NCBI GenBank assembly: GCA_947302535.1
Contig: CAMYVX010000003.1
Span: 6,593 to 70,592 of the forward strand
Length of the DNA stretch: 64,000 nt
Direction of reading: 5' to 3'
DNA from: an uncultured Bacillales bacterium
GTDB lineage: Bacteria > Bacillota_I > Bacilli_A > RFN20 > CAG-826
Of the stretch, positions 8,636 to 63,899 are shown piece after piece; the first letter of the stretch is position 1, and the number at the start of each line of letters is the position of its first letter. The notes under the pieces are model-generated. The model was not told the DNA's origin. It searched no databases and saw nothing but the letters and a program-made list of their open reading frames with translations. A program made the translations under genes and the position numbers.

Positions 8636-8719
8636 ATTTATATCTTAAATGTTTTTCTTTTTTTAATAAAGAAAATAATAGAATTAAGTGCAAAATGAAA
8701 TAGATATTACAAAGTATCT

Positions 8720-13974: not shown

Positions 13975-16677
13975 TTAGTCGTTAATACCAATGAAGATTG
14001 CTTCTTCAGGTTCTGCACCTTTATTAGCACGGACTGGTTTCTTATTCTTTCTTGGTTTGCGTTTTCTTTCGATGTTATCAAGTTTGAATTTAGCATAGAA
14101 GAAATTAGAAATAGGCACCAATAAGGTTGTAACGGCAATAAATGTAACGATACTAGAAATAGCTAGAGCTAAGAACATCCAGGATGTCACAATTGGACCA
14201 AAGCCAAAGAAGTCAATGGCGAGCCAGAAGATAAAGATGAATGAAGATAATGTTAAGGAGAACACTAAGGAGTTGGACTTATTCAAAAGTTCAGCGCGGT
14301 GTTCAGAAGAATTATCTCTTACTTTTTCTTCTAGAATCATATCTCTTTCTTTATTCATGATGGCAATTGCTAAAGCAAAAGCAAAGACACCAACGACAGG
14401 AACAAAGGCAAGAGTGTAAGAAGTGACAGGTAGTCTTACTAAAGCGAAGAATCCCCACATAAATGTCGCTGAAGCAAGGGCTAAGATATAAGCGCCTAAA
14501 CCACGAGACAAACGATATCTAAGGACTAAATAGAATCCAGCAACAGTAACACCAACTAAAGTTGCAAGAGCGGCTGGCCAAGCTACTGGAGAATCATTAC
14601 TATAAGTCTTAGTAACTTTCATAGAAATAGAATCGGTTTCATCATCAAAGCGATCAGAAACGACATATTCAATAGTCTCTTCGAGGCTAGCAAATTTTTC
14701 TACTTTATCATCATGTGTATAAATACCTTTATAGGAAGCTGGATCATAACTACCATCTAAGGTAACTAAGAATGTGTAATGTTCAATTGGATTCTCCTCA
14801 TCATCAGGATTTGGTTCACTCCAAGTATCTTTCTTCTCTAAAGAAGAAACAACATCGGAAAGTTTCTTCGCATCTTCTTCATCTTTTTCATAGAAAGAGA
14901 TTTGTTCAAGAACTTCTCTTACATCCGCTTCTTCAGTTAATCCACTATATTCGTTTGTGGTTTCAAAATAAATTTGTGAGTTGCCAACTTTGCTACCTTG
15001 AGCATAGATTTGGCCTTTATTAATAGCACCAAAGACAATACCTCCAACTAAGGAAGCCACAAATAAAGCGGCAAAGACAATACCAATTGGCTTCTTTTTC
15101 TTAGTGAAATCTTTATCGGCATATGCACCATAATAAGTTTGTTTTTCTTCTTTAGCTAAGTTAGGAACATGTTCACCATTAATACCAAAGACTTCGTATT
15201 TACCTTGTAAGCAAGTTGCATTAGTGGCTAACCACATCATACCTTTTAATAAGGTGACATTTAATAATAAGGAAGCTAAGCCACCAAAGACAGTAATAAC
15301 AGCAAAGGTTCTCATGGCTTGTCCGCCTAAAACATAGCAGAAGATACCAATAATCATTAAGACGACGTTAACGTCGACAATTGGAAGCAAGGATCTTCTA
15401 CTAGCTTCGCTATTGGCTTTCTTTAAGCTCCTACCACGATATGCTTCTTCTTTCATCTTGTGCATATAGATAATGCTACTTGTTAAAGAAGCAAAGGCCA
15501 CAGCAATTAAAGCAGCAACGGCAAATGTTGTAAATTCAGCATTGAATAAGATAGTTGCCCCGATAGCAGCAAAGATAGAAACAACTGCGTTAACAACAAT
15601 ACTTAAAGTAGATAGACGATAGAAAGCCACTAAGATAAAGGCAAGGATAATAAGAGCGGCAATCATAGCAATGAAAGTTTTGCTGAAGCTTAATCCACCT
15701 TCATTAACTAAGGTTTCATTCCAAGCACTAGCGCTCTTTGAGTATAAGTAAGTGACTTTATAATCTAATTCACCAGCGTTAATTAAATTAACGATATAAC
15801 GGGCTTGATTATAGCCGTATTCTTTTTCACTTAAATCAATATCACCGCTACTATCACGGTCCATATTAACCATGGAATAGAGTTTGTTATATTCTCCATC
15901 GTCATAATAGAAGGAGGTTTTGTTGCCATCCTCATCTTCACTTTCAGGAGTAATTTCGAATTTCATTAATAAGCGACTTGTCGCTGATTCTTTTTTCTCT
16001 TTCAAAGCATCAAAAGTACATTTTTCATCATCATAGTCATACCAAAGGTAGAAATAGCAATGATATTCAGTAACTTCTTCGCCATCATCTCCTTGAGAGG
16101 AAGTGGCTTCGCCAAATTCTGATTTCTTGCTATCATCGGCTAAGTCGTCTTCAGTTTCTTGGAGCATTTGTTTATAGTAAGAGTTTTCAACATCAACAGG
16201 TAAAACAACTGATGGGTAACCATTACTAGTAGTTTTCATAATAGCTTGTTCGCCACTTGGGAGGAAGGATGGGTTATCATCGTTATCAGATGTAGTTAAG
16301 ACAGTGTTATGGGCGTTACTTAAACCAAGAGAACCATTGAATGATAAATAGGTTCTAATATGTTCTAATTCTTCTTCACTATAGGATTTTAAAGTGACTT
16401 TAACAGTATCTTGATTTTGAGTCTCGACTTTATAGTTAGAAACTTTATAAATATCAAGTCTTTCAATCATCTTTTCGGCGATATAGTCGGCGCCTTTTTC
16501 TTCGCCCATTCCAATATCTTCACCGTTTTCGTCAACGTTAGTTACTCTAAAGGTCATCTCTGTACCGTTACTATATTCAATATTGAATTGAGATTTCACG
16601 AAAACAGAAACGAATGTTGTACCCACAAGTACAAGCGCGGTAACTGCGGTAATAATGTAAGCCCATAATCTACGCAT
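13975..16677 (-). CDS. secDF: Protein translocase subunit SecDF (fused)
   Basis: 900 aa; N-terminal TM, large periplasmic domain, two 6-TM bundles; fused SecD-SecF. Confidence 0.8.
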   Translation of the reverse strand: MRRLWAYIITAVTALVLVGTTFVSVFVKSQFNIEYSNGTEMTFRVTNVDENGEDIGMGEEKGADYIAEKMIERLDIYKVSNYKVETQNQDTVKVTLKSYSEEELEHIRTYLSFNGSLGLSNAHNTVLTTSDNDDNPSFLPSGEQAIMKTTSNGYPSVVLPVDVENSYYKQMLQETEDDLADDSKKSEFGEATSSQGDDGEEVTEYHCYFYLWYDYDDEKCTFDALKEKKESATSRLLMKFEITPESEDEDGNKTSFYYDDGEYNKLYSMVNMDRDSSGDIDLSEKEYGYNQARYIVNLINAGELDYKVTYLYSKSASAWNETLVNEGGLSFSKTFIAMIAALIILAFILVAFYRLSTLSIVVNAVVSIFAAIGATILFNAEFTTFAVAALIAVAFASLTSSIIYMHKMKEEAYRGRSLKKANSEASRRSLLPIVDVNVVLMIIGIFCYVLGGQAMRTFAVITVFGGLASLLLNVTLLKGMMWLATNATCLQGKYEVFGINGEHVPNLAKEEKQTYYGAYADKDFTKKKKPIGIVFAALFVASLVGGIVFGAINKGQIYAQGSKVGNSQIYFETTNEYSGLTEEADVREVLEQISFYEKDEEDAKKLSDVVSSLEKKDTWSEPNPDDEENPIEHYTFLVTLDGSYDPASYKGIYTHDDKVEKFASLEETIEYVVSDRFDDETDSISMKVTKTYSNDSPVAWPAALATLVGVTVAGFYLVLRYRLSRGLGAYILALASATFMWGFFALVRLPVTSYTLAFVPVVGVFAFALAIAIMNKERDMILEEKVRDNSSEHRAELLNKSNSLVFSLTLSSFIFIFWLAIDFFGFGPIVTSWMFLALAISSIVTFIAVTTLLVPISNFFYAKFKLDNIERKRKPRKNKKPVRANKGAEPEEAIFIGIND

Positions 16678-16773
16678 ATGTGTATCCTCCTAAGCGCATG
16701 AAAGCGCGTGCAAAAACACGTCTAGCAATAAATATACCTAACTTGAATATATATTTCAATATAAATTGAAAGG

Positions 16774-18498: not shown

Positions 18499-19242
18499 TT
18501 ATTTTTCATCCCTAATAAACTCCTCAGCTTCAGGGATAGGAACACGTTTATGTTCACTAATTCTATGTAAATAATTAATTCTATCTAAAACTTCTTTATT
18601 AACAATCTTTCCTAAAAGGAAATCATCTAAATCTTTATAAGTAATACCCATTTCTTTTTCATCAGTCTGGCCTTCAAATAGACCGGCGGATGGAACGCGT
18701 TCCGCTAAAAACAATGGAACACCTTTAATCTTTGCGGCTTCCACAACTTCTTTTTTCACTAATTTAGCAATAGGGAGTAAATCAGCTGCCCCATCTCCAT
18801 ATTTAGTAAAGTAGCCAGTATATCTTTCATCAGCATTATCAGTGCCTAGAACTAATAGATGATGTGTTTGTCCATAAGCATATAAAGTTGACATTCTCAT
18901 CCTCACTTTAAGGTTAGACAAGGAACCTTTATCAAGTTCTATTCCTTGTTCTTTAAAAGTTTTAACAAAGTTTTGGAATGTTTCACTTAGATCGATGACA
19001 TGATAATTTAAATCCAAAGCTTTGGCTAAGGCGATAGCGTCTTTTAAATCATCAGGATGAGAATCAATGGGCATCATAATACAGTGTAATTTGTCTTTAC
19101 CTACAGCTTCTTTGCTTAAGGCTGCGACCAAAGAAGAATCAACTCCACCAGAAAGCCCTAAAACATAGCCAGAGGCTTTAGTTTCAACTAAATAATTCTT
19201 TAAGAATTCTTCGATTCTATCTAAATATCTTTCTAGAGTCAT
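18499..19242 (-). CDS. nadE: NH3-dependent NAD+ synthetase
   Basis: 247 aa; PP-loop SGGVDSS. Confidence 0.85.
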   Translation of the reverse strand: MTLERYLDRIEEFLKNYLVETKASGYVLGLSGGVDSSLVAALSKEAVGKDKLHCIMMPIDSHPDDLKDAIALAKALDLNYHVIDLSETFQNFVKTFKEQGIELDKGSLSNLKVRMRMSTLYAYGQTHHLLVLGTDNADERYTGYFTKYGDGAADLLPIAKLVKKEVVEAAKIKGVPLFLAERVPSAGLFEGQTDEKEMGITYKDLDDFLLGKIVNKEVLDRINYLHRISEHKRVPIPEAEEFIRDEK

Positions 19243-19244
19243 AA

Positions 19245-20522
19245 CTACCTCACATAGTCAAAAGCAAAATCGCCTAAAATAACAGTATCTCCGTCAAGCG
19301 CTCCACGAGCTTCTAGTTCATCATCAATACCGATCTTTCTTAATTTAGTTAATAAGACCATCATACCTTCATCAGTAGAAATATTAGTCATCTTATAGAA
19401 GCGAAGAATCTTATCTCCAATAATCTCCCAAGTATGAGCGTCTCTTCTAATGATTTCATATTCTTTTTCTTCCTCTTCAAGTTCATATAATCTATGATCA
19501 AGTTTTTCTTCCTCTTCATCATATAAAGGAAATAGAGGTGTTTTTTCTAATAAATCAGCAATTTTATATAATAAAACATCAATATTCTCTTCAGTTAAAG
19601 CGGAGATAGGAATAATGTCTTCTTTAATGTGCTTCTTTAATTCTTTCAATCTTTCGTTTGCACCATCTTCATCCATCTTTGAAGCGACAAGAATATGAGG
19701 GCGATTAATTAGACCGAATCCATATGATTCTAGTTCTTTATTAATCACTAAATAATCGTTATATGGGTCTCTACCTGATTCACCCAAATCAATAACATGG
19801 ACAACAACACGACATCTTTCGATATGTCTTAAGAATTGTAGACCTAATCCTTTACCTTGATGAGCTCCTTCAATTAATCCAGGAAGATCCGCCATCACGA
19901 AAGAACGATTGTCTTTAGTAGTAACAACACCAAGATTAGGAATAATGGTTGTAAAAGGGTAATCAGCAATTTCTGGTTTAGCAGCAGAAACTACCGATAA
20001 TAATGTTGATTTACCAACACTTGGGAAACCAACTAAACCAACATCCGCTAATAGTTTTAATTCAAGAATTAAACGTTTTCTTTCGCCAGGTTCACCGTTT
20101 TCCGCAATTTTAGGAGCGCGATTTGTGGAAGATTTGAAGCAGTTATTACCTCTACCACCTCTACCACCTTTAGCCACACGAACAATTCTTCCATCTTCAT
20201 TTAAGTCAGCGATAAATTTATGTTCTTTTTCTTCGTAAATTACTGTACCAACAGGGACATCTAAAATAATATCTTCAGCGTATTTACCATATTGATTTTT
20301 ATTACCACCTCTTTCTCCATCTTTACCGATGAAGGTTTTACTATGGCGATAATTAAAGAGGGTGTTAATTTTGCTATTAGCTCTTAAGTAGATAGAAGCA
20401 CCACGGCCTCCATTACCTCCAGCAGGTCCACCATTAGGTAAGAACTTTTCACGTAAAAAAGCAATAGCGCCATCTCCGCCTTTTCCACTTCTTACCTCAA
20501 TAACGACACGATCAATAAACAT
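19245..20522 (-). CDS. obg: GTPase Obg
   Basis: 425 aa; N-terminal Gly-rich Obg fold, G domain (GFPSVGKST), C-terminal OCT domain. Confidence 0.9.
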   Translation of the reverse strand: MFIDRVVIEVRSGKGGDGAIAFLREKFLPNGGPAGGNGGRGASIYLRANSKINTLFNYRHSKTFIGKDGERGGNKNQYGKYAEDIILDVPVGTVIYEEKEHKFIADLNEDGRIVRVAKGGRGGRGNNCFKSSTNRAPKIAENGEPGERKRLILELKLLADVGLVGFPSVGKSTLLSVVSAAKPEIADYPFTTIIPNLGVVTTKDNRSFVMADLPGLIEGAHQGKGLGLQFLRHIERCRVVVHVIDLGESGRDPYNDYLVINKELESYGFGLINRPHILVASKMDEDGANERLKELKKHIKEDIIPISALTEENIDVLLYKIADLLEKTPLFPLYDEEEEKLDHRLYELEEEEKEYEIIRRDAHTWEIIGDKILRFYKMTNISTDEGMMVLLTKLRKIGIDDELEARGALDGDTVILGDFAFDYVR

Positions 20523-21521: not shown

Positions 21522-21713
21522 AATGTCCCTCCTTTTTATAGATTCACTAATGACTCGCTATTAAGGTAACCGAAGTTTTTATAGAACCTTTTCTATGCGG
21601 TTGTAGCTAGTGAGGCGACAACGCTAGTAATATAACAAAAGTTATAAATAATAATCAACTAAAATTTTTAATTAATTAAACAAAGAGGCTAAAAAAGTCC
21701 GTGCAAATACTCT

Positions 21714-25271: not shown

Positions 25272-25490
25272 AATCTTTCCTCCAAAAATAAAACGTCCTC
25301 TCTAAGGACGCTATACGCGCGGTACCACCTTAGTTCACTTATTCAGTGCACTTCATTAACCTATTTCGCTAGGCAGCTATCCTCCAAAGCGACCTTCGCT
25401 TATTCTTTTAGCCAAGCTTCCACCATCCTCGGCTCTCTAGATAAAAGAGATAAGTTACTCCTCTTCTTCAACGGAACAAATAAATTATAG
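25272..25490 (-). promoter_or_regulatory. T-box leader (tRNA-sensing riboswitch) of valS
   Basis: Minus-strand sequence contains the T-box core AACTAAGGTGGTACCGCGCG. It is followed by a terminator hairpin CGTCCTTAGAGAGGACG plus TTTTATTTTT just upstream of the valS start. Confidence 0.75.
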
Positions 25491-52741: not shown

Positions 52742-55700
52742 TTATTTTTCTTCTTTTCTTTTTCTAAAGAAGAAGTAAGCACCAACGGCAGTTGCACTAA
52801 GCATAGAAATAACTACGATCAATGAAACAGCGTTATTAGTGTTCATAGAAACACCGACAAGGCTAATGCTTGTTGGAGCAGAACCTAGAGGTTTAAGTTC
52901 CTTCATGAAGGCAGTCATTCCGTGTTTTTGGACACAGACTTCATAAGTCTTCATCATTCTTTCAATACAAGCTTCACCACTGTCATCAGAATATTGTGCA
53001 GTTGCATACTTAATCAAGTTCTTTGCGTACGCTTCTTCAGCGGAACCTAAAGCGGCAGCTTCGGACTTAAATGTATTATATGCAGTTGAACATGCTGACC
53101 ATGCATCATCTAATCCTTTTGTGCAGTTTTCAGTTTCATCCATTGCAGCATTAAATGCTTGAGCGAAGGCTACTGCAACTCTTTGAGCAGCTTTGTGTGA
53201 TGCGTTATTAGCTATATTTTCTGAACCACTAACAGTGTTAACAACAATTTCTTTAACATAAATGGCTTTAGAAGAACTGTTAACCCAATCAATGGAAATA
53301 GTTCCAGATTTGCCACCTAAATCGAAAGTGTAAGCAGTATTTGTGTTGGTGATTGTTTGAGCTGATCCATAAGCAGTTCCACCGACACTAACTTGAACTG
53401 TTGCATTGATGCTATTAGCACCAGATGTATAAACAGTTACAGAATCAACTGTTCCGCTAAATGCGGATGATTGTAATGAAACAACTGAGTATGGATGTGT
53501 TCCAGAACCAAATTGTTGTCCTTTTGTAGCATCATAGCCAAAATATGGCGTTCCATCATCTGTGCCAGACATGGTCCATAATTTTTCGCTAATTGTCCAG
53601 TCACCAGCAGCACTCCAAGCTTTTGCTGTGAATGTATGATCCCAAGAATCTGTTAAACTAGCATTAACAGCGTTAATTGTTTGAGTAACAGTAACAGCTA
53701 CAGATGAAGAAGAAATTCCACCGTATTCGACATGTAATGATTTGCCATCATCTTCGGTCACAAATGTGTATGGAAGTGAAGTAATTTCTTTGCTTCCTAC
53801 ATATAATTCATAATCACCAAATGTAATGTAATCGGCATCACCATTATTCTTCTCGTAGTTAACTTCCCAAGTATCATCGATATTAGATGGGATAGTTGCG
53901 CCGGAGAAGACATCAAAAGCAGATGCGCTCCAATTAACTTCAGTAACTGCACTAGCAATGACACTAAATGTCACGCTGGCAGAATCTGATTTGCTGTTAG
54001 AATCAGTAACAGAACATTGAAGTGTAACACTACCAGCAGCGCTACCACTTAGGGTAACTGTTGCACTTGATCCACCACTTGAAATAGAAGCATAGCTTCC
54101 GCCTGATGTGATTGACCAAGAATATGAATATGGACTTGTTCCACCTTCAACAGATGCTGTAACAGTTGTTGTTTTTCCAGTATACAAAGTTACTGAATTT
54201 GGCAATGTAACAACTGGGTTACCAGAAACTGTTAAGACAAATGTTTGATATTTGCTTGAATCAGCGGTTGATGTACATTTCAAGGTGATTGTACCTTCGG
54301 TACTACCGGCTTCGACAATATCAGCCTCAAATGTATAGTCATTATTGACTGTATTGCTTAAGACAGTCCATTCATATGTTTGAACTGCATCAGCAGGCAA
54401 AATGGTAACTCCAATTTCTGACATATCAAATAATTCAGTTGTTGCCACTTTTCCAGTATTAGAAGCAATTGTTAAACTGCTAACAGGAGCATTAGCAACA
54501 CTAATTGAGTAGGTTGCTGTTTTTGTAATACCACCTTCAGTGTATTTGGCATAAATGGTATGACCATCATGAGCAGCGTGTGTCATGGTAACACCAGACA
54601 TACTTGTCCCTTCAGCAGAATCTAGGTGGAATGTTGTGCTACCAGTAACAGCTTTTGGACTATCAATTGTGTAACTTGCAGTTACAGTTCCACCAAATGA
54701 GAATGTTTCTCCACTAGCGAACGAAGTCTTGTAATCACCGGAAAGAGCAATTGAACTTAATTCGTTTTGAGGTGGAATATAAGCAAACATGTAAACATCG
54801 CCAACACCACTATCTGTCTTGTAGTTTCTCATATCGTGATAACTTGTGTTCATTCTCCAAACACGGCCACTACCAGTAGAAGATGTACATGTGAAGAGGA
54901 TGTATTTGTTGTCTTTGATAGAAGCACTGAATGTTGAAGCATTAGCTTCAGTGTCAAAAGCGTCGTTGCCATTTGAAGTTCCGGTGAATTTCAAGTACTG
55001 ATCACCACATTTAATTTTCCATCCAGATGATGATGAACCTTTTAAAGTAAGAACCATGGCTTCAGTAGAAACGAGTGTACTACCAGAAGCAACACCGTTT
55101 GAAATTGTTGTTGCAGCTGTCTTTGCAGTTAAAGCAACGTGATTGCTAGAAATAGCAGTGTCAACATAATATGTTCCAGAAGTTTCATAAACTAATACAA
55201 ATGTTGTGTCTTCGACTAAGTTAGCAACACTTGTAACGATTGTGTATGTTGTTACTTCTTGATAAACAGCAGTAACTGTTGTAGCACCACTAATAGTTAC
55301 AGTAGCACCTTCGGCGTATTCAACGCCTCCAACACTCCATTTCTTAAATGAATAACCGCTTGAAGCTGTAAATCCTGCAGTAGCAAATGTTACTAATGTG
55401 TATGAACCACCATAAACATTGTTTACAACATAGTTGCTACCTGTTCCGTGATCACCATGAATATAGGTCACTGTATATTTTGCATCTTCAGTCCAGTATG
55501 CAGTATATTCGATATCATCGCCTACTGCTGGTGATTCGTCTCCTGCATCATATAAGGTATTACCACCATCGCTACTCCAACCATCAAACGAATAGTGCGT
55601 TTTTGTACCTGGAGATGGGAATTCGAATTTTTCTCCATCTTCTACGCTCATATCAGCAATAGAGGCACCTCCATCACTATCAAAAGATACTGTCCAATAG

Positions 55701-56641
55701 GTAACACTGTCATCTAGTGCGGTCACCACTAAATCGACATAGACAGAAGTTTGAGTATTACCGGAAATTCTAAATGTTTCAGATCCGGACGTATTACCTT
55801 TTCCTGTAACAGTAAATGAACCAGAACCACTTGAGCATGTAGCAGAACTGCTTACTGTAAAGAGGCCAGATGTTCCGCTTTGGTGAGCAATATTGACTTT
55901 TTGGTCAGTTGCACCAGATGGATTTAAGGTTACAGAAACTGTTTTGGCTGTAAGGTCGCTAGATCCAATTGACAATGCGTTTTGAGATGCAGCACCACCT
56001 AAGGTAATTCCAGTTAATGGTGTCGATCCAGCAGTATAAACTTTAATGGATTTTAAATACGTCCTATATTTTTTGGCAGTTGTATCGACCTTAATCGAAG
56101 TAAGTGTTGTCGATCCATCCCAGGCAAGCTCTTTATCAGCAAACGAACCAGAGGTTGAACCAGTAGTATATGTTGTATATCCTGTACCACTTGTTGCGCC
56201 ATTCAATGACAATTTGATAGTTTTGCCAGTGTCATTTGCCGCAGCTAATTCAAAAACGACCTTTGTTGCCTTGACTTGTCCAGTTGATGACAAATTGAGC
56301 GTTAAAACACCGGCATAGTTGCCAGAGCCAAGTTTAACACCGCAGTTAGATTTGCCTTGATAAACATACGACGCTGTGACACTCGAAACATAAGAATTAC
56401 CACTACTAACAATGTCAGCTAGAGCGGTTTTTGCTGCTGTTCCATCGCTAGAATTGCCGCTATCCTTAAGCGTAATTGTATAAGCCAGGGAATCTGCAGC
56501 ATGTACTGGAGTAGCTTCTTTGCCACTACTAGCAAAAGCAACACCAACACCTACAGCCATCGCTAAGCCGACAAAAGCTATAGCGATTTTTGTAAATAAT
56601 TTATTCATAAATCTAAATCTCCTTTCAATAAAAGTCTCCAA
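52742..56641 (-). CDS. Large surface-anchored protein with Listeria-Bacteroides-type (Flg_new) and Ig-like repeats
   Basis: 1299 aa; signal peptide paralogous to the nuclease gene (MNKLFTKIAIAFVGLAMAVG vs MKNLFSKIMVAFLGASLVIG); YSFDGWS Flg_new motif; C-terminal TM helix plus RKRKEEK; followed by terminator hairpin gggacc...ggtccc. Confidence 0.65.
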   Translation of the reverse strand: METFIERRFRFMNKLFTKIAIAFVGLAMAVGVGVAFASSGKEATPVHAADSLAYTITLKDSGNSSDGTAAKTALADIVSSGNSYVSSVTASYVYQGKSNCGVKLGSGNYAGVLTLNLSSTGQVKATKVVFELAAANDTGKTIKLSLNGATSGTGYTTYTTGSTSGSFADKELAWDGSTTLTSIKVDTTAKKYRTYLKSIKVYTAGSTPLTGITLGGAASQNALSIGSSDLTAKTVSVTLNPSGATDQKVNIAHQSGTSGLFTVSSSATCSSGSGSFTVTGKGNTSGSETFRISGNTQTSVYVDLVVTALDDSVTYWTVSFDSDGGASIADMSVEDGEKFEFPSPGTKTHYSFDGWSSDGGNTLYDAGDESPAVGDDIEYTAYWTEDAKYTVTYIHGDHGTGSNYVVNNVYGGSYTLVTFATAGFTASSGYSFKKWSVGGVEYAEGATVTISGATTVTAVYQEVTTYTIVTSVANLVEDTTFVLVYETSGTYYVDTAISSNHVALTAKTAATTISNGVASGSTLVSTEAMVLTLKGSSSSGWKIKCGDQYLKFTGTSNGNDAFDTEANASTFSASIKDNKYILFTCTSSTGSGRVWRMNTSYHDMRNYKTDSGVGDVYMFAYIPPQNELSSIALSGDYKTSFASGETFSFGGTVTASYTIDSPKAVTGSTTFHLDSAEGTSMSGVTMTHAAHDGHTIYAKYTEGGITKTATYSISVANAPVSSLTIASNTGKVATTELFDMSEIGVTILPADAVQTYEWTVLSNTVNNDYTFEADIVEAGSTEGTITLKCTSTADSSKYQTFVLTVSGNPVVTLPNSVTLYTGKTTTVTASVEGGTSPYSYSWSITSGGSYASISSGGSSATVTLSGSAAGSVTLQCSVTDSNSKSDSASVTFSVIASAVTEVNWSASAFDVFSGATIPSNIDDTWEVNYEKNNGDADYITFGDYELYVGSKEITSLPYTFVTEDDGKSLHVEYGGISSSSVAVTVTQTINAVNASLTDSWDHTFTAKAWSAAGDWTISEKLWTMSGTDDGTPYFGYDATKGQQFGSGTHPYSVVSLQSSAFSGTVDSVTVYTSGANSINATVQVSVGGTAYGSAQTITNTNTAYTFDLGGKSGTISIDWVNSSSKAIYVKEIVVNTVSGSENIANNASHKAAQRVAVAFAQAFNAAMDETENCTKGLDDAWSACSTAYNTFKSEAAALGSAEEAYAKNLIKYATAQYSDDSGEACIERMMKTYEVCVQKHGMTAFMKELKPLGSAPTSISLVGVSMNTNNAVSLIVVISMLSATAVGAYFFFRKRKEEK

Positions 56642-57203: not shown

Positions 57204-57809
57204 ATGAAGAAAATATCACTATTACTTGCCACTTCCGCTCTTAGTGTTATCGCTGTTGGTGCGGTATTAGCAACAAACTATAGTAATGGCGCTCCATTTG
57301 CTAAAGCGGAAAAAAGAAGTGAGAGCGATCCATACACTATCACTATTGACTCAACTAAAAAGGAATTCCATACTGGTGGATTTGATATTAAAACCGAATT
57401 AGGAAACACTATTAGTTTTTCTTCTAATGGTGTTGTTAATCCTTCTACTAGAGAATTAGTTAGTGGCGGTGATGGCTTATATGTTTATAACGATGTTACT
57501 TATTCTGGCCATGACGAAGTTTTAGATAACTTAATCACCAGCATCACTTCTGTTACTGTTGAATTCACCAACAACGATACTGAAAATCCACTATCTATTT
57601 ATGCAGAGACTGATTATTATGATGAAAACGAGCCTAGTAAATATAGCTTTGATTATTATATTTTCTATGATGATGTTGATGAGATTGAAATTGAAAGCGG
57701 TGTAACGTGTGAATTCACCGGAGACAATCTCCCTACAGCTTTTACCATCAATACTGATTCAAACGAAATATCCATTTCTAAAATCACCATCACATATCTA
57801 TGTGCATAG
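57204..57809 (+). CDS. Secreted/anchored protein, family shared with 59297..60679
   Basis: 201 aa; N-terminal signal/anchor; conserved EPYTITIDS block shared with the 460-aa paralog; RBS aaggagg. Confidence 0.55.
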   Translation: MKKISLLLATSALSVIAVGAVLATNYSNGAPFAKAEKRSESDPYTITIDSTKKEFHTGGFDIKTELGNTISFSSNGVVNPSTRELVSGGDGLYVYNDVTYSGHDEVLDNLITSITSVTVEFTNNDTENPLSIYAETDYYDENEPSKYSFDYYIFYDDVDEIEIESGVTCEFTGDNLPTAFTINTDSNEISISKITITYLCA

Positions 57810-57888: not shown

Positions 57889-58902
57889 TCATTTAATAAA
57901 CTTATTAATTTCTTCTTCAGTAGGCAAGTATTGTTCGATTGCATAGGATGTCACTCCTATCGGGGCATTGCTAGATTTTAAAGACCACTCAACAGAATAC
58001 CTGTCTTTGTTTTTACATAATAGCAAGCCAATCGTAGGATTATCACCTTCTTGTTTAAGTATTTCATCGATAGCGGTAATGTAAAACTGAAGCTGCCCTA
58101 TATATGATGGGTCAAAATCAGTGTTTTTAAGTTCTACAACAACAAAACACTTTAAACTCAAGTGATAAAACAAAAGATCGATATAGTAATCCTTGTGGCC
58201 AGTACTAATTCGATATTGATTGCCAACGAAAGAAAACCCTTTTCCAAGCTCTAATATGACTGTCTTTATACGTTCAACCATCCTTTTTTCGATGGCTGTT
58301 TCTATCATCTTTTCAGATAGTCCATTAATCTCAAAAATGTAAGGATCTTTTAATAAATCCATTGCCAGTTCACTTTGTTTAAGTGGCAAGTTTTTATCAA
58401 AATTAGCAAGTTTTCTAGTATTAATGCCTTGCCTTTCAAATAGTTGTAAATCAATTTGGTGATTGAGAACAATATAGCTCCACCCATTTTCAAAACATTT
58501 GTTGGCATACCAGATTCTTTTGTCTGTATTTTCTATTTTGTCTATTAATAGACAATTAAAAGACCATGGCAATTTTGCCAATGCCGTTGGCAAATTTGAT
58601 AAATCTAAATAAGATTCATAAAATTTCTTCATTCGTGAAAGATTTCTTGGCGAAAAACCTGTATTGTTTGGATAATCTATTTTCAAAGACATGGATAAAG
58701 TATTGATAAAATTAGAACCATATTTTTGATTTTCGCTTATCACTTTCCCAATTCTAAAATACAAACAAATAAGTTCCATGTTGGCATCACTCAACATTTT
58801 ATTTCTTGTTAGTACAATGTCTTTTTTGATGTCTTTAACTAATTTCATCATTTGATCTAAATCAATTGTATCTGCTACTTTTTTCATTAATAAAACCTCC
58901 AA
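57889..58902 (-). CDS. YhcG-like PD-(D/E)xK nuclease-domain protein (DUF1016 family)
   Basis: 337 aa; C-terminal IDLLFYH...VVVELK PD-(D/E)xK signature typical of DUF1016/YhcG proteins. Confidence 0.65.
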   Translation of the reverse strand: MEVLLMKKVADTIDLDQMMKLVKDIKKDIVLTRNKMLSDANMELICLYFRIGKVISENQKYGSNFINTLSMSLKIDYPNNTGFSPRNLSRMKKFYESYLDLSNLPTALAKLPWSFNCLLIDKIENTDKRIWYANKCFENGWSYIVLNHQIDLQLFERQGINTRKLANFDKNLPLKQSELAMDLLKDPYIFEINGLSEKMIETAIEKRMVERIKTVILELGKGFSFVGNQYRISTGHKDYYIDLLFYHLSLKCFVVVELKNTDFDPSYIGQLQFYITAIDEILKQEGDNPTIGLLLCKNKDRYSVEWSLKSSNAPIGVTSYAIEQYLPTEEEINKFIK

Positions 58903-59296: not shown

Positions 59297-60679
59297 TTAT
59301 CTATAGACAACTTTCATTCTCTTAATCCAAATATTGTGTTTTTTGATGTTGTCTGGGTCTCGGTACTCATTAGGAACATAAAATTCAGCCTTATCAGATG
59401 TGAAGTTCGTCCAAACAACCTTACTCATAGCCTTATTTCCATCTGTTTTATCTTTTAAACCGCTGTATGTTGTAAGCGTTCCGTTTGTTGTTTCAAATTG
59501 ATCAATTCCAACTGGGTCGGATTGTGAAGGTTGATCCATATTCATATAGAAGATAACTGCTTGAATTTTGTCTGGATTAAATGGTTCACAATTGCCGTGG
59601 CCTTTGCGATCAACATTTAATTCAAGATGGGTCAAGTAATTACCCCTATTGAAATGTTGTGCAATAAATAATTCGTTAACATTGTCTGTTAGCGCTGTTG
59701 GGAAAGATGTTTTATCATCTTTCACGCTGTTGAGTGGATAATACTTGTTATTCTTGTTTTTTACATAAGTAGTTAATTTATCGCCTGAAGTGTCTACACC
59801 TTGGTCAAATAATTCTGTTTCAGCTTCTTCAAATTCTGCCACATAAACATAGGATTGATTTGGTTCTGAGGTGAACGTTATATCGAAATCTCTACTTACA
59901 ATTTCTTCACTGCCATTTAAATGCCAACCTTGGAATGATGCAAAATACTCAGTTTCATAATTGGTGAGTGGATTGGCGTGAATTGTGATTTGAGTTCCAT
60001 TGGTCACAATTTGTTCGTTGCTTCCATAGCCTTCGATTGAAACAGTTCCATAACTTTCGTTTGTGGAAGAGACTTTTACTAAGTTTTTAAGATTGGAACA
60101 ACTAAAATAAAATTTGACTGATGTGACTTCTAAACGATATGAATATGCCATGTTTTCGTTTAATTTCATAGAAATATAATTTCCATGACTTTGGCTACTA
60201 GGAATATCTATTGAATAAGTTTGAACCGATGTTGCACCAATTATCTTGTCAGCGCTATAAACTGAACTTGTTTGTTTTGGGTCAATCCTTGTTTCTGTTC
60301 TAAGAGTTGCGGCGGTTGGACTTGAACCTCCATAGACATAAGCGCTTATATCGATTTTATATAGGCCAGTCATAGCAGTTTCGTTTTTTAAATACCCAAT
60401 ATTTCTTTGCCAATAAAAAACATCTTCACCAATAAAATTAACTGAATTGGTAACAAATGTGACATCGTTACCAAGACCTGTTTTGAATATGCCTCGATAA
60501 ACATCGCCATCTTGAACAAAATTAGATCTATTCGATGCGTTAATTGTTAATGTGTATGGTTCGTTCTCAGCATTTGTAAATGAAGAAAAACCCGATTTGT
60601 TTGATAATAAGGCAACTGAAGCAAAAACTCCAATAGCCATTGTGCTAGTTAATAAGAGGGTCACACTTTTCTTTTGCAT
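59297..60679 (-). CDS. Secreted/anchored protein, paralog family of 57204..57809
   Basis: 460 aa; N-terminal signal/anchor and EPYTLTINAS block. Confidence 0.55.
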   Translation of the reverse strand: MQKKSVTLLLTSTMAIGVFASVALLSNKSGFSSFTNAENEPYTLTINASNRSNFVQDGDVYRGIFKTGLGNDVTFVTNSVNFIGEDVFYWQRNIGYLKNETAMTGLYKIDISAYVYGGSSPTAATLRTETRIDPKQTSSVYSADKIIGATSVQTYSIDIPSSQSHGNYISMKLNENMAYSYRLEVTSVKFYFSCSNLKNLVKVSSTNESYGTVSIEGYGSNEQIVTNGTQITIHANPLTNYETEYFASFQGWHLNGSEEIVSRDFDITFTSEPNQSYVYVAEFEEAETELFDQGVDTSGDKLTTYVKNKNNKYYPLNSVKDDKTSFPTALTDNVNELFIAQHFNRGNYLTHLELNVDRKGHGNCEPFNPDKIQAVIFYMNMDQPSQSDPVGIDQFETTNGTLTTYSGLKDKTDGNKAMSKVVWTNFTSDKAEFYVPNEYRDPDNIKKHNIWIKRMKVVYR

Positions 60680-60893: not shown

Positions 60894-62174
60894 CTAGTTT
60901 TTTAAAGATGAGAGGGGAACAACATAAACTCCATCCGGGCGTTTATACGCGGCATTTGATAATCCACAAATAATGCACAATGATTTAGCTGGCTTACCAC
61001 CATGATCCGTTATTTCTTTATTTATTTTAAGCAGTTTATTTGCTGCCGAGTCAATTTGATTGGCGCCCAATTTAATTTCTATTGCACACCACTCGCCATC
61101 ATCAAGTTCAATAACGGCATCAATTTCGTTATTAGAATAATCTTGGTAATGAAACAATTCAGCGTTGAATGTTTCAGCATAAATCCTTAAATCTCTTTCA
61201 ACAAGAGCTTCAAACATAAAACCAAATGTATCTAAATCTGATATTAATTTTGTGGTATTTAAGTTTAGAGCAGCACATGCTAAAGCAGGGTCACAAAAAT
61301 GTCTTTTTTCTCCTTGTTTAATTCTTAATGAAGAACGAATCTTTGGGCTGAAAGGTTTTTGATTTTCTAATAGAAATAAGCGTGATAATGAATTCAAATA
61401 TTTGTTTATTGTTTCGTCACTAACAATACTTTTATCCGTTGCTGATATGTCTTTTGATAAAGATAAATTGGTTATTGTTGTAGATTCGTTTCTTGCTAAC
61501 GATCTTAGAAGAAGATTAATCTTACTGGTCTCGTATCTAACGTCCTCATCAAGTTTTTGGATATCCTCAAATAATACACTTTTGAGGTATCCTTTTGGAA
61601 GAATGCCTGCTTTCTCTTTCGAAACACCAATATTGTCTGGCCAACCACCCCTAACAATCAAATATGCAATTGTTTCCAAATCTACATCACCAGTTAACAG
61701 AGTTTGATTAAAAGAATTATCACAGATTTCTTTTAAAGAAACTTTGCCATTAGAATCTCCTGACTCATATAGGCTCATAGTATGCATACGTATCCCGATG
61801 ATTCTTCCAGTTCCTGAATGTAATACACCTTTCCTAACAGGAGTTGATGAACCCGTTAAGATATATTGACCTTTATGATTTGTCTCATCCACTTTCATTC
61901 TTACAGCATCCCACAATGGAGGAACTTCTTGCCATTCGTCTATAAGACGAGGAAAATCACCATTTAAGACTTTTATTGGATCCATTTCTGCGAGTCTTCT
62001 ATTACTGAAATTGTTAGAAGGATCGCCTACATAATAGTAAGAGGTAGAGTGAAAAGAAGAAGTCCAAGTCTTTCCGCACCATTTAGGCCCTTCTATGCAA
62101 ATCGCCTTAGCTAAACCAAGGTACTCATTTATCTTATCATCAATTAATCTTGGTTTATAATTGTCTTTATTCAT
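60894..62174 (-). CDS. AAA+ ATPase with DUF4143 domain (COG1373 family)
   Basis: 426 aa; P-loop GPKWCGKTW, IDEWQEVPPLW...YILTGSS, HSGTGRIIGIRMHTMSLYE, the family-typical blocks. Confidence 0.8.
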   Translation of the reverse strand: MNKDNYKPRLIDDKINEYLGLAKAICIEGPKWCGKTWTSSFHSTSYYYVGDPSNNFSNRRLAEMDPIKVLNGDFPRLIDEWQEVPPLWDAVRMKVDETNHKGQYILTGSSTPVRKGVLHSGTGRIIGIRMHTMSLYESGDSNGKVSLKEICDNSFNQTLLTGDVDLETIAYLIVRGGWPDNIGVSKEKAGILPKGYLKSVLFEDIQKLDEDVRYETSKINLLLRSLARNESTTITNLSLSKDISATDKSIVSDETINKYLNSLSRLFLLENQKPFSPKIRSSLRIKQGEKRHFCDPALACAALNLNTTKLISDLDTFGFMFEALVERDLRIYAETFNAELFHYQDYSNNEIDAVIELDDGEWCAIEIKLGANQIDSAANKLLKINKEITDHGGKPAKSLCIICGLSNAAYKRPDGVYVVPLSSLKN

Positions 62175-62444
62175 ACAATCGACCTCCTGTCAAGATAATT
62201 CTATTTTACGCATATTTAAAAATATATTACAAGAAACTTGGAAACATTTTGCACTTTTACTTGGAAACTTTTTGCACTTTTACTTGGAAACTTTTTCAAA
62301 TAAAAATAGTCATTGTTTTTTATAAAAAAGTCAGAAATTTCGTTCGTTTCTGACTAGATATCCAGATGTCTAAGTACTACGAAAATAATACAAGGAACAC
62401 TTTTTGATAAGTGGTAACACTTTTTAAATGTTAACACGAATAAA

Positions 62445-62744
62445 TTATCTATTCTTGGTCCATTGACGTTGACATTTTTTGCATTCGTAATGAACGGTTT
62501 CATGCCCATCTGCAAAACGTTCACTCCAGAACATAATGTCATCATATCCAGCGCCACATTGAGGACAATTATTTTCAGTTGAACATATTAAACCTCCACC
62601 GGATATCGCATTTAACTGTTCGTCGGTTAATTCCACGCCTTGTTCTTTAGCTAATGACAACAATTCTTCGTGACTTTTACACGCTTTTACTCTAGCGATT
62701 TGTTCATCAGTTAAACCTTTTAATAATTCTTGTTTCATGTTCAA
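62445..62744 (-). CDS. Nif11-type leader peptide precursor with double-Gly cleavage motif and Cys-rich core
   Basis: 99 aa; leader ...ELLSLAKEQGVELTDEQLNAISGGG matches the Nif11-like leader pattern; 47-48 aa core with CPQCG ... CKKCQ plus a fifth Cys. Confidence 0.6.
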   Translation of the reverse strand: MNMKQELLKGLTDEQIARVKACKSHEELLSLAKEQGVELTDEQLNAISGGGLICSTENNCPQCGAGYDDIMFWSERFADGHETVHYECKKCQRQWTKNR

Positions 62745-62955
62745 AGTTCTCCTTTATCGAATCTACTTTATCACAAGTCTTGCCACAAAAGTGTCACAGA
62801 AATTAATTGAATAAAAAGGATTCAAGAAATCCTTACTCTATCTCAATGAGTCCCTTGTTCGATTTTAACACATCGCAAGTGAATTCGTTAATTTTGTCAT
62901 CAATTCGCAAGCAAAACTCGTGCACCTAAATAAAGCATCGCACAAGTGCGTGCAA

Positions 62956-63285
62956 TTAAGCGAAGCAATAATCAATTTTTGTTTTTGTAATCAATACCGC
63001 ATCGGTATTAATTATCTTTTTGAGTCTTTCGCTTAATAATCTCACTTCATTCTCATCAATTCCGATAATTATGATTCTTAAGCTTGTCTCGGTTGTGTAA
63101 CCCTTACCATGTTTATAACCACCGGTTTGAGTTAATAAAGAGAAATTAATCTTTTTTGTATGGCAAATATCACAAAGGATATTCTTAAAATCCTCAACAC
63201 TAAGAATTTCTTCATAAGAATCCTTATCTTTGATGCCGATATAAATCTCGTATTTTATGCCACTATTAAACTTTAAATCTTCCAT
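62956..63285 (-). CDS. Small hypothetical protein, tandem paralog A
   Basis: 109 aa; shares NFSLL..GGY, IIG.D and AVLI.K.K blocks with the adjacent 105-aa ORF. Confidence 0.45.
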   Translation of the reverse strand: MEDLKFNSGIKYEIYIGIKDKDSYEEILSVEDFKNILCDICHTKKINFSLLTQTGGYKHGKGYTTETSLRIIIIGIDENEVRLLSERLKKIINTDAVLITKTKIDYCFA

Positions 63286-63288
63286 AAT

Positions 63289-63606
63289 TTATACTATTTC
63301 TTTTTGAAGCTTGTTTTTAACGATCAAAACAGCTTCTTGATTCATATACATTTTGAAGGCTTTGGCTAAGCTAATAATCTTTTCATCATCAGAACCAATA
63401 ATCGTGACACAGACACCATTTTCAGAGACATAATTGCCGCTTTCATATGAATAACCACCATTAAGTCTCAACAAAGAAAAATTGGCTTCTTTTTTTGAGA
63501 AAAAACCAACAATAGTCTTGCTTAGTTCTTCATCATTAACAATTTCGTTATTAAGATATGGATCATTGCATCCAACGATTATTTGATATTCAACATCCTG
63601 ATTCAT
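63289..63606 (-). CDS. Small hypothetical protein, tandem paralog B
   Basis: 105 aa paralog of 62956..63285; 3-nt gap to paralog A; no SD, pyrimidine tract upstream. Confidence 0.45.
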   Translation of the reverse strand: MNQDVEYQIIVGCNDPYLNNEIVNDEELSKTIVGFFSKKEANFSLLRLNGGYSYESGNYVSENGVCVTIIGSDDEKIISLAKAFKMYMNQEAVLIVKNKLQKEIV

Positions 63607-63766: not shown

Positions 63767-63899
63767 TAGCCTACTTTTTGGTGCCCCTTGCCAGAGTCGG
63801 ACTAGCGTCAAAGCATTACCATTGCTCCGTACTACCGTTGTACTAAAGGGGCATAACGCAAGAATTATAAATATAAAGAAGAGTAATATCAAGAAAAAG

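Follow-up and report, generated by a model that had tools for sequence, protein, structure and literature searches.

The gene located at 62445-62738 on the minus strand of the 64-kb stretch of DNA analysed here (the window) encodes a 97-aa peptide in which a 48-aa Nif11-like leader, ending in an invariant Gly-Gly, is fused to a 49-aa core with five Cys that is predicted to fold as a TFIIS/TFS-type zinc ribbon. It belongs to a large, hypervariable and apparently undescribed family found in uncultured rumen Bacilli, and some related genomes, including three that carry the orthologue of this peptide, harbour at another locus a conserved operon encoding a radical-SAM (rSAM)/SPASM enzyme, a HlyD-like stub, a C39-peptidase ABC exporter and a second ABC subunit. 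In the absence of experimental data for any member, and since the presence of this machinery is inferred from relatives with 91% nucleotide identity or less, the most likely reading (probability around 0.7) is that of a precursor cleaved by a C39-peptidase exporter (PCAT), giving rise to an exported, metal-stabilised mini-protein which is probably also modified at its conserved N-proximal Cys.

The existence of the open reading frame, noted in a preliminary description as extending from 62445 to 62744, was confirmed, although translation almost certainly starts at the ATG at 62738 (MKQELLKGL...) rather than at the TTG at 62744, since a GGAG is present 10 nt upstream of the ATG and only 4 nt before the TTG, and all the homologues start with MK[QEK]ELLKGL. 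The leader thus ends in ...AISGG, and the 51 residues previously assigned to it included two from the TTG start plus the third Gly. The core (GLICSTENNCPQCG...CKKCQRQWTKNR) contains CPQC and CKKC motifs 24 residues apart. The gene is not a chance ORF: more than 200 homologues were found, with E values down to 1e-54, full-length orthologues of 96-97 aa were present in 12 representative genomes, none of them as part of a larger protein, and dN/dS among orthologues was 0.33. The features of the region, which has the layout of a self-contained cassette, are listed in Table 1.

Table 1. Features of the precursor gene and its flanking sequences (positions in the window).
Feature	Position	Strand	Characteristics and basis
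Upstream hairpin	62808..62834	-	AAGGATT-TCTTG-AATCCTT followed by a T-rich tail; acts as a terminator or insulator immediately upstream of the precursor's promoter; read from the sequence; array paralogs show the same hairpin-then-motif layout
Family-specific promoter or operator motif	62780..62798	-	TGTGACAC-TTT-TGTGGCAA; tandem TGTGRCA repeats 11 nt apart, the first being a -35-like GTGACA; function as a promoter inferred
Extended -10-like element	62767..62775	-	TGTGATAAA; also a third copy of the TGTGA repeat; position conserved in the anchored alignment of 164 upstream regions; inferred
Ribosome-binding site	62747..62755	-	AAAGGAGAA; most conserved upstream block among paralogs
Leader coding region (aa 1-48)	62595..62738	-	MKQELLKGLTDEQIARVKACKSHEELLSLAKEQGVELTDEQLNAISGG; Nif11-like double-glycine leader
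Core coding region (aa 49-97)	62448..62594	-	GLICSTENNCPQCGAGYDDIMFWSERFADGHETVHYECKKCQRQWTKNR; N-proximal Cys52 and CPQC...CKKC predicted zinc-ribbon domain
Stop codon	62445..62447	-	TAA
Conserved 3' untranslated region	62366..62444	-	Repeated AAAAAGTGTT(A/C)C units; function unknown
Intrinsic-terminator-like hairpin	62320..62354	-	GTCAGAAA-(9 nt)-TTTCTGAC followed by TTTTTTATAA; ends the monocistronic precursor transcript; read from the sequence

Profile searches with the leader gave significant E values for PF07862 (1.1e-4; 22.8 bits against a gathering score of 23.8), TIGR03798 (4.4e-3; 17.2 bits against 32.3) and TIGR01847 (0.023; 15.3 bits against 15.7), in all cases below the curated cut-offs. 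Of 97 relatives, 80 matched Nif11 with E<=0.01 (best 7.5e-7), and 13 of the 120 relatives listed carry a precomputed PF07862 hit, whereas ten relatives compared with TIGR03798 scored 27.4 bits or less, or gave no hit at all. The stretch ELTDEQLNAISGG closely matches the published N11P/NHLP motif 2, ELSDEELEAVAGG / ELSDEQLDAVAGG (PMC2887384), and Ile at -4 and Leu at -7 and -12 are present relative to the inferred cleavage site, in agreement with what would be expected for double-glycine leaders. These results support the assignment to Nif11-type leaders made in the preliminary description.

The core gave a match to PF01096 (19.0 bits, E=1.3e-3), below the gathering score of 21, and to TIGR01384 (20.5 bits against 64.75). 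Residues 57-97 were modelled by AlphaFold2 as three strands with pLDDT of 84-90, and Foldseek matched the model to the zinc ribbons of RPA12, Rpb9, C11 and NrdR, with rmsd of 2.2-2.4 A over 43-46 residues and probability 1.00. In addition, phmmer matched the T. celer TFS ribbon with E=5.6e-4. C58, C61, C86 and C89 are the candidate metal ligands in this predicted fold. The earlier suggestion of a new core class also holds as far as we can tell, since no curated family covers it and no paper describing the family was found in literature searches that left out most subscription journals.

At least 538 clusters at 50% identity were identified with E<=1e-10, and single MAGs carried up to 14 paralogs in the stretches analysed. 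Mean identity was around 75% for the leaders and 32% for the cores, and nucleotide homology between the window gene and paralogs stops at about 62592-62617, i.e. at the leader/core boundary. L5, L9, Q13, L37, E40, Q41, G47, G48, C58 and C89 were invariant. Of 130 unique precursors, 125 have 5-7 Cys in the core, 124 have two or more CxxC, and all have the first Cys at core positions 1-5. No relative was found in IMG/VR, so the family does not appear to be phage-borne.

The gene had previously been considered an orphan, but this seems to be true only locally. No rSAM or LanM homologue, C39 transporter or further precursor was found in the window, in which only 1.3 kb of sequence is visible upstream of the gene, and the ABC exporters at 8720-12315 have ABC_membrane and ABC_tran domains only and, as already pointed out in the preliminary description, no C39; the PCAT of L001 (related loci are numbered L001 onwards) aligns with them only from residue 153. 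However, L001/L002 carry 12 zinc-ribbon precursors around an rSAM/SPASM gene (16 leader matches in the whole 20-kb locus), followed by a 130-aa HlyD-like stub, a C39-ABC and a second ABC. The C39-ABC scored 819.5 bits with TIGR03796 (cut-off 853.3) and 7e-31 with Peptidase_C39, and the second ABC 655 bits with TIGR03797 (cut-off 709.4); these are the best hits, although just below cut-off. The same operon is present in L044, L053, L054, L055 and L058, and three of these loci come from genomes that also carry the orthologue of this peptide: RGIG9687 (L009 and L044), SRR873606_bin.85 (L011 and L053) and ruminal_MAG_116 (L014 and L054). These are only 3 of the 12 orthologue-bearing MAGs, although retrieval of loci was biased toward precursor patterns and MAGs are incomplete.

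The rSAM enzyme is highly conserved (77-84% identity over more than 120 clusters) and its nearest solved relatives are the RiPP maturases SkfB and SuiB. NCBIfam and Pfam gave only generic Radical_SAM and SPASM matches, the names in the source databases being also generic, while scores with named families were far below their cut-offs (StsB, 78.3 bits against 625; PapB, 64 against 340; rSAM_nif11_3, 62.6 against 725).

A further connection between precursors and machinery is provided by the motif TGTGRCAC-N3-TGTGRCAA, located 41 nt before the ATG of the window gene. This was the only match in the window even when two mismatches were allowed (0.08 expected). In related loci there are 91 unique sites, of which 71 are followed by a family precursor 38-42 nt downstream, including the precursor that heads the rSAM operon in L053.

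Based on these data, we propose that the helical leader is recognised by machinery encoded at another locus, and that a 464-aa rSAM/SPASM enzyme with a leader-binding-type N-terminal domain modifies the core, most likely through a thioether-type cross-link from the conserved Cys located within its first five residues (Cys52 in this case). The C39-peptidase ABC exporter of the NHLP/Nif11 type, together with the second ABC subunit and the HlyD-like stub, would cut after Gly48 and export the 49-aa product. Outside the cell, the CPxCG...CxxC core would fold as a TFIIS/TFS-like zinc ribbon held by a metal (Zn or Fe), which is plausible in the reducing rumen, or alternatively by disulfides, and would act as a diffusible antagonistic or competitive peptide. 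The cleavage site, export, modification chemistry, metal binding and activity are inferred.

Comparison with known systems reveals similarities and differences. As in Nif11-derived leader peptides such as those of prochlorosins (Haft, Basu & Mitchell 2010, PMC2887384), there is a helical leader ending in the ELxDEQLxAxxGG motif, with Gly-Gly marking the end of conservation, hypervariable Cys-containing cores, many paralogs per genome, often far from the single maturase, and association with the TIGR03794/03796/03797-type exporter, the last two observed in relatives. Here, however, the leader has 48 aa rather than about 69 and matches only positions 21-50, approximately, of the 68 in the TIGR03798 model, the maturase is an rSAM/SPASM enzyme and not LanM or a cyclodehydratase, the cores are predicted zinc-ribbon domains of about 47 aa rather than short Ser/Thr/Cys/Gly-rich stretches, and the hosts are non-photosynthetic rumen Bacilli. 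With rSAM/SPASM thioether RiPPs (sactipeptides and ranthipeptides: SkfA/SkfB, thermocellin/CteB, freyrasin/PapB, SCIFF) the family shares Cys-bearing cores, genetic linkage in relatives to a maturase combining an N-terminal peptide-binding-type domain, a radical-SAM domain and a SPASM domain, of which SkfB is the nearest solved relative by sequence and by predicted fold, and a peptidase-ABC transporter, by which those RiPPs are often exported. It differs in that the maturase matches no named family and the cores carry a canonical CPxCG...CxxC metal-knuckle architecture predicted to fold autonomously. With class II double-glycine-leader bacteriocins and their PCAT exporters (ComA/LagD/PCAT1-type) it shares the LxxxEQLxxIxGG cleavage region and, in relatives, a C39-ABC exporter with the QxxxxECG active-site motif, but the leader is much longer and Nif11-like, an rSAM lies in the operon, and the cargo is a predicted zinc ribbon rather than an amphipathic or hydrophobic peptide. 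Finally, with the TFIIS/TFS/Rpb9/RPA12 C-terminal ribbon and the NrdR N-terminal ribbon it shares the CxxC-N24-CxxC spacing and the predicted three-stranded fold, along with the pattern R.AD...TV.YEC..C in the case of RPA12. Nevertheless, the acidic hairpin (DE) that reaches the RNA polymerase active site is not conserved (RFADGHE in the window, RDANGHE or RDAKGHE in orthologues), other family members resemble other ribbon types (TFIIB, YjdM, IS1595), and the context is secretion, not transcription.

Leader-guided peptide natural products are normally short and unstructured, and gain their shape from enzymatic cross-links, while here a Nif11/double-glycine leader is attached to a domain predicted to fold autonomously and diversified into hundreds of sequence clusters. 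If the peptides are secreted as predicted, zinc ribbons would have been recruited as an extracellular, evolvable scaffold, PCAT exporters would handle metal-knuckle mini-proteins, and an abundant uncultured rumen lineage would invest heavily in an uncharacterised chemical arsenal. It could be tentatively considered that the family represents a new class of ribosomal natural product, in which one conserved rSAM/SPASM enzyme and one PCAT exporter service a genome-wide, co-regulated library of hypervariable zinc-ribbon mini-proteins, as a rumen-Bacilli analogue of the prochlorosin system with folded, metal-binding cargo. Even more speculative, and of low probability given the below cut-off similarity, is the idea that TFS/TFIIS-like members such as this one might act on the RNA polymerase of competitors, for example methanogenic archaea.

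Among the alternatives, the one that best withstands the data, although doubtful, is that the peptide is cleaved and exported by the PCAT but remains unmodified, the mature product being just a metal- or disulfide-stabilised zinc ribbon. In L044, L053, L054, L055 and L058 the gene immediately 5' of the rSAM is a precursor with a short, single-Cys core, a variant leader (KACDDVNDLLQLAKDEG) and a conserved [HK]RKI[DE]S tail, and the enzyme may therefore act only on that class. Besides, the zinc-ribbon core is predicted to fold on its own, and large arrays such as L003-L006 lie more than 10 kb from any rSAM. On the other hand, in L001/L002 the rSAM is embedded among zinc-ribbon precursors only, with no short-core gene, all classes share the leader (about 75% identity) and the GG-(G/A)-C-(S/T) N-terminal core segment, and the N-proximal Cys is retained in every orthologue even when its position shifts (GGCLLSS versus GGGLLCS), a pattern that suggests a functional fifth Cys beyond the four metal ligands.

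It is less likely that the product is a signalling peptide or pheromone, sensed by the producer population or regulating the partner-switching module next to the operon. The operon is flanked by SpoIIE-type phosphatase, STAS and anti-sigma-kinase genes, the family motif also precedes a STAS gene in locus L049, and this particular core is conserved across 12 representative genomes rather than being hypervariable. However, the number of hypervariable paralogs per genome is typical of antagonism or combinatorial libraries, not of a single cognate signal, and no receptor kinase is consistently adjacent. An intracellular, uncleaved protein, such as a nucleic-acid-binding or transcription-related factor, appears very unlikely in spite of the resemblance to TFS/TFIIS/RPA12 ribbons and the JGI names of some relatives ('RNA polymerase subunit M/TFIIS' or 'RNA-binding Zn-ribbon protein'), given that Gly-Gly is invariant exactly where conservation ends, the genes are embedded in rSAM/C39-ABC operons, the C-terminal halves are hypervariable, AlphaFold2 shows a disordered linker at residues 46-54 with no packing between leader and ribbon, and similarity to the TFIIS family is below cut-off, with no conservation of the acidic hairpin. 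Least likely is a decaying relic left behind by recombination, which could be suggested by the single copy located in a variable region next to a tRNA-Thr gene, a DUF4143 ATPase and a YhcG nuclease, with no local partners, but is at odds with the intact ORF and its accompanying signals, the dN/dS value, and the conservation of the same 485-nt module at 84-91% in 12 other representative genomes despite differing flanks.

Those orthologue alignments run from 62366/62367 to about 62800-62848, the furthest limit corresponding to L007, L011 and L013, and apart from the tRNA-Thr nothing was detected with Rfam in or near the gene. With respect to the neighbours, the preliminary description had correctly identified a DUF4143 ATPase (DUF4143/AAA_14) and two paralogous ORFs, which are of 105 and 109 aa and 33% identical. 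A tblastn search with these proteins against 59 related loci found no copy beside any family member, and they were therefore rejected as immunity or maturation genes; only the secreted 460-aa protein is syntenic, in L010, L014, L016 and L017.

The ORF of the preliminary description was confirmed on the minus strand, although its start had to be corrected. The mechanical ORF begins at a TTG that lies only 4 nt after the GGAG of a strong Shine-Dalgarno sequence (AAAGGAGAA), whereas an ATG lies 10 nt after the GGAG and every homologue begins MK[QEK]ELLKGL. The product is therefore 97 aa long and consists of a 48-aa leader, MKQELLKGLTDEQIARVKACKSHEELLSLAKEQGVELTDEQLNAISGG, and a 49-aa core, GLICSTENNCPQCGAGYDDIMFWSERFADGHETVHYECKKCQRQWTKNR, with five Cys: one N-proximal Cys, plus CPQC and CKKC separated by 24 residues. 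A hairpin with a T-run follows the gene and a second hairpin precedes its promoter region, so that the gene looks like a monocistronic cassette. The statements made in the preliminary description about the genomic context are also correct: the two ABC exporters of the window have no C39 domain, nothing in the window resembles an rSAM maturase or a PCAT N-terminus, and the flanking genes encode a DUF4143/AAA_14 ATPase and two paralogs of 105 and 109 aa that are 33% identical. The coordinates of these and other features are collected below.

Coordinates of the features discussed in the text, in the window and in related loci (L numbers)
Sequence	Feature	Coordinates	Strand
Window	ORF from the TTG (62744)	62445-62744	minus
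Window	Precursor gene from the ATG (62738)	62445-62738	
Window	Shine-Dalgarno sequence AAAGGAGAA	62747-62755	
Window	Hairpin with T-run following the gene	62354-62320	minus
Window	Hairpin preceding the promoter region	62834-62808	
Window	Gly-Gly boundary	62595	
Window	End of nucleotide similarity to paralogs	62592-62617	
Window	Promoter motif TGTGRCAC-N3-TGTGRCAA	62780-62798	minus
Window	3' untranslated region conserved in orthologues	62366-62444	
Window	Repeated AACACTTTTT units in the 3' untranslated region	62396-62405 and 62416-62425	
Window	485-nt module shared by orthologous loci	62366-62848	
Window	Three tandem 23-nt direct repeats	62233-62299	
Window	DUF4143/AAA_14 ATPase gene	60894-62174	minus
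Window	Tandem paralogous ORFs (109 and 105 aa)	62956-63606	minus
Window	tRNA-Thr(GGT)	63779-63852	
Window	Secreted 460-aa protein gene	59297-60679	minus
Window	Region rich in secreted or surface proteins	57889-58902, 52742-56641, 57204-57809, 59297-60679	minus, minus, plus, minus
Window	Two ABC exporters	8720-12315	
Window	T-box leader	25301-25480	minus
Window	Ribosomal protein L21 leader	21540-21612	minus
L053	Promoter motif before the first gene of the rSAM operon	9941-9959	
L049	Promoter motif before a STAS gene	7766-7784	
L021, L022, L056	Promoter motif before a 390-aa HipA_C-like gene	15668 (L021), 19669 (L022), 9267 (L056)	
L044, L053, L054, L055, L058	Short-core precursor directly upstream of the rSAM gene	2059-2259 (L044), 10001-10195 (L053), 9992-10192 (L054), 9164-9361 (L055), 10001-10174 (L058)	
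L001, L053, L055	Partner-switching set flanking the rSAM/PCAT operon	6657-8702 and 19046-20300 (L001), 16459-16752 (L053), 15611-15901 (L055)	

The gene belongs to a large family. A word-indexed search returned 201 homologues of 60-118 aa (most of them 85-105 aa), with E-values down to 1.5e-54, and a profile search of 1.84 billion cluster representatives found 538 clusters (50% identity) at E<=1e-10 and 3340 at E<=1e-3, most of the top hits covering the full length. In an alignment of 97 sequences, L5, L9, Q13, L37, E40, Q41, G47, G48, C58 and C89 were invariant, while C20, P59, C61 and C86 were at least 90% conserved. We extracted 130 unique precursors with a recognisable GG boundary from related loci. 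The leader was 48 aa long in 126 of them and the median core length was 47 aa; 125 had 5-7 core Cys, 124 had two or more CxxC, and the first core Cys was always located within core positions 1-5. For the 121 of these with a 48-aa leader and a core of at least 30 aa, mean pairwise identity was 0.75 for leaders and 0.32 for cores, and in 84 the first knuckle was CPxCG. At the nucleotide level, similarity between the window gene and its paralogs stopped exactly at the Gly-Gly boundary. A conserved leader, an invariant Gly-Gly and a hypervariable core are the signature of leader-guided, exported peptides as defined for the NHLP/N11P families (PMC2887384).

The window peptide hit three leader profiles, in all cases below the curated cut-off: Pfam Nif11 (PF07862; 22.8 bits against 23.8, E=1.1e-4), TIGR03798 (17.2 bits against 32.3, E=4.4e-3) and the bacteriocin double-glycine signal TIGR01847 (15.3 bits against 15.7, E=0.023). 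Eighty of 97 relatives hit Nif11 at E<=0.01, but none of ten relatives reached the TIGR03798 cut-off, the maximum being 27.4 bits, and all matches covered only model positions about 21-50 of 68. The stretch before the cleavage site, ELTDEQLNAISGG, is nearly the published 'motif 2', which is ELSDEELEAVAGG for N11P and ELSDEQLDAVAGG for NHLP (PMC2887384), and it has hydrophobic residues at -4, -7 and -12. Our reading is that this is a shortened, divergent member of the Nif11/NHLP leader clan that sits at or just outside the curated family boundaries. One relative has been labelled by NCBI as a 'Nif11-like leader peptide family natural product precursor'.

With respect to the core, individual members among the 97 sequences hit many zinc-ribbon Pfam families: TFIIB (25 members), IS1595 (20), YjdM (17), TFIIS (17), Cas12f TNB (12), PaaD (11) and Lar (10). 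The window core itself scored 19.0 bits on TFIIS_C against a GA of 21, and by phmmer against PDB sequences it matched the Thermococcus celer TFS ribbon at E=5.6e-4 and RPA12 at 1.9e-3, sharing with RPA12 the pattern R.AD...TV.YEC..C. AlphaFold2, run with the family alignment, gave low confidence for the leader (three helices), a disordered linker at residues 46-54, and pLDDT 84-90 for residues 57-97, predicted to fold as a three-stranded sheet. The best PDB matches obtained with Foldseek were the C-terminal ribbons of RPA12, Rpb9 and C11 and the NrdR ribbon, at rmsd 2.2-2.4 A over 43-46 residues with probability 1.00. The 'zinc-ribbon-like' character proposed in the preliminary description is thus supported by sequence profiles and by predicted fold.

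The gene had also been described as an orphan, but this holds only locally. L001 and L002, two gut-type metagenome contigs, carry 12 zinc-ribbon precursors on both sides of a 465-aa radical-SAM/SPASM gene, and 16 leader matches occur in the whole 20-kb L001 locus. Downstream are a 130-aa membrane protein with a weak match to the N-terminus of TIGR03794 (HlyD-like), a C39-peptidase ABC transporter (TIGR03796, 819.5 bits; Peptidase_C39, 7e-31; active-site context QLEALECGAASL), a second ABC subunit (TIGR03797, 655 bits), and STAS and anti-sigma-kinase genes, while a SpoIIE phosphatase and a TetR gene lie upstream. The rSAM/PCAT operon is flanked by a partner-switching set, made up of a SpoIIE-type PP2C phosphatase, a STAS antagonist, an HATPase_c_2 anti-sigma kinase and a STAS-APH fusion, with a TetR gene also present, which hints at stress- or signal-gated production.

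A scan of representative genomes returned 53 loci, nearly all from uncultured rumen 'Erysipelotrichaceae/Bacillales/Bacilli' MAGs. Analysis of these loci by tblastn showed that large arrays of 7-14 precursors lie far from any maturase (for example L003-L006 and L019-L022, L025, L031 and L036), and that the same rSAM / 130-aa / C39-ABC / ABC2 operon occurs in L044, L053, L054, L055 and L058, at 75-78% (rSAM) and 78-86% (PCAT) identity to L001. Twelve representative genomes carry a 96-97-aa orthologue of the window peptide (81-90% identity by tblastn) as a singleton or near-singleton. Three of those twelve also yielded the rSAM operon on another contig: RGIG9687 (L009 and L044), SRR873606_bin.85 (L011 and L053) and ruminal_MAG_116 (L014 and L054). 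Retrieval of loci was biased toward precursor patterns and MAGs are fragmentary, and the presence of the operon in the organism studied here is extrapolated from relatives at 91% nt identity or less. Lower-bound counts per MAG reach 12-14 precursors. Family precursors or leader fragments were also found on short contigs binned to unrelated phyla, L043 (labelled Candidatus Saccharibacteria) and L059 (labelled Coriobacteriaceae), most likely as a result of mis-binning, though horizontal transfer is possible.

The rSAM is strikingly conserved, with more than 120 clusters at 77-84% identity and 463-466 aa, and it has no specific name. Its nearest solved relatives are the RiPP maturases SkfB and SuiB, both by sequence (E=4.4e-10 and E=1.1e-5, respectively) and by predicted fold in Foldseek comparisons (9.3e-12 and 1.1e-10). 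Its first roughly 85 residues form a confidently predicted separate domain, in a position that, by inference, matches the peptide-recognition domains of such enzymes.

A shared promoter motif ties the singleton to this system. Nucleotide similarity between the window gene and its paralogs extends about 65 nt upstream of the ATG, and when 164 unique upstream regions were aligned, anchored on the ATG, the conserved elements were the RBS and, further upstream, TGTGRCAC-N3-TGTGRCAA followed by TGTGATAA. In the window the motif lies 41 nt before the ATG and is the only match in 64 kb, even with two mismatches allowed (expected 0.08). In the related loci there are 91 unique exact sites, of which 71 are followed by a family precursor at 38-42 nt, and a further 12 were counted as misses only because an alternative upstream ATG or a slightly variant leader defeated our pattern. 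The motif also precedes the short-core precursor that heads the rSAM operon in L053, a STAS gene in L049, and a 390-aa HipA_C-like gene in L021, L022 and L056 (homologue in L001), although L001 and L002 lack the motif. The first repeat is spaced 17-18 nt from the -10-like element, so it can serve as a -35 (GTGACA), and the conserved second repeat in the spacer suggests a regulator site. This part is inference, but it argues that the window gene is expressed together with the dispersed family and its machinery, and the distribution of the motif suggests a dedicated regulon. The 3' untranslated region of the precursor is also conserved in orthologues, and its repeated AACACTTTTT units resemble the reverse complement of the promoter motif.

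Selection was analyzed across the window and 11 ungapped orthologues. For the whole gene, dN was 0.069 and dS 0.210 (dN/dS 0.33); the values were 0.088 and 0.344 (0.26) for the leader, and 0.051 and 0.104 (0.50) for the core. Synonymous divergence is therefore three times lower in the core than in the leader, which might be explained by gene conversion of leaders by paralogs or by nucleotide-level constraint on the core. The ribbon from CPQCG to the C-terminus is almost invariant. The N-proximal Cys is always present, but its position shifts (GGCLLSS versus GGGLLCS), and this points to a role for a fifth Cys that does not depend on the ribbon fold. Most orthologues have a sixth Cys (CQCQW) at residue 91, where the window has Arg.

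Established knowledge of double-glycine leaders and peptidase-containing ABC transporters, together with the linkage found in relatives, makes cleavage after Gly48 and export the most likely fate of the peptide, with a probability that we put at about 0.7-0.8 in the absence of experimental work on any member. Whether the rSAM modifies this peptide is less certain, and modification can only be proposed tentatively. In favour of modification, the rSAM of L001/L002 sits among zinc-ribbon precursors only, and all classes share the leader and the GG-(G/A)-C-(S/T)-(S/T/V) start of the core. Against modification, in five other loci (L044, L053, L054, L055 and L058) the gene immediately upstream of the rSAM encodes a distinct short-core class, examples being ACSDSTEDSKKDHKRYDK and GCSDSTANKNKIRKIES, with one Cys, a polar, acidic linker, a variant leader (KACDDVNDLLQLAKDEG) and a recurrent [HK]RKI[DE]S tail, or GPINNPF in some other short-core members. 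That class is probably the enzyme's primary substrate, and it may be the only one. The chemistry is a guess, a thioether from the N-proximal Cys being suggested by analogy with SkfB-like enzymes. The CPxCG knuckles and the strictly anaerobic habitat favour a metal-bound ribbon over disulfides, but this too is inference. As for the role of the product, paralog hypervariability favours an antagonistic, bacteriocin-like one, while the conservation of this particular core across 12 genomes leaves room for a signalling or other conserved function.

The system works like the N11P/prochlorosin paradigm, with one maturase, one PCAT and many dispersed hypervariable precursors, but differs from it in the maturase class, in the shortened leader and, above all, in the core, which is predicted to be a folded zinc-ribbon domain. 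It also resembles sacti- and ranthipeptide systems in its enzyme type; however, the maturase matches no named family and the cores are unlike any described class. No curated NCBIfam or Pfam model covers the full-length family, and we found no paper combining these features in searches that did not extend to subscription-only literature. Nif11-like, GG-leader, PCAT-exported precursors are already known, and NCBI has labelled one member as such, whereas the zinc-ribbon core class, its scale, its unnamed conserved rSAM and its dedicated promoter motif appear undescribed.

The genes next to the precursor are irrelevant to it. Neither the DUF4143 ATPase nor the 105/109-aa pair has a homologue in any of the 59 related loci, and orthologous loci share only the 485-nt module, at 84-91% nt identity, plus the secreted 460-aa protein gene in four cases. 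The module therefore sits in a variable region next to tRNA-Thr. The 105-aa protein gave faint hits to PF23780 (S-adenosylmethionine lyase family, E=1.8e-3) and phrog_16022 (E=4.7e-4), and the pair may be mobile or phage-derived cargo. Just upstream of the ATPase gene there are three tandem 23-nt direct repeats (ACTTGGAAAC(A/T)TTTTGCACTTTT), which may be operator or iteron-like sites and are not present beside orthologues of the peptide. The region around the peptide is rich in secreted or surface proteins, including a 1299-aa protein with a Listeria-Bacteroides repeat and a PKD domain, and 201-aa and 460-aa proteins with signal-like N-termini and no Pfam match; a YhcG/DUF1016 PDDEXK nuclease is also present, all of which is consistent with a variable island. 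Elsewhere in the window, Rfam detected a T-box leader (96.2 bits) and a ribosomal protein L21 leader (36.7 bits), ordinary Firmicutes-type cis-regulators that are unrelated to the precursor gene.
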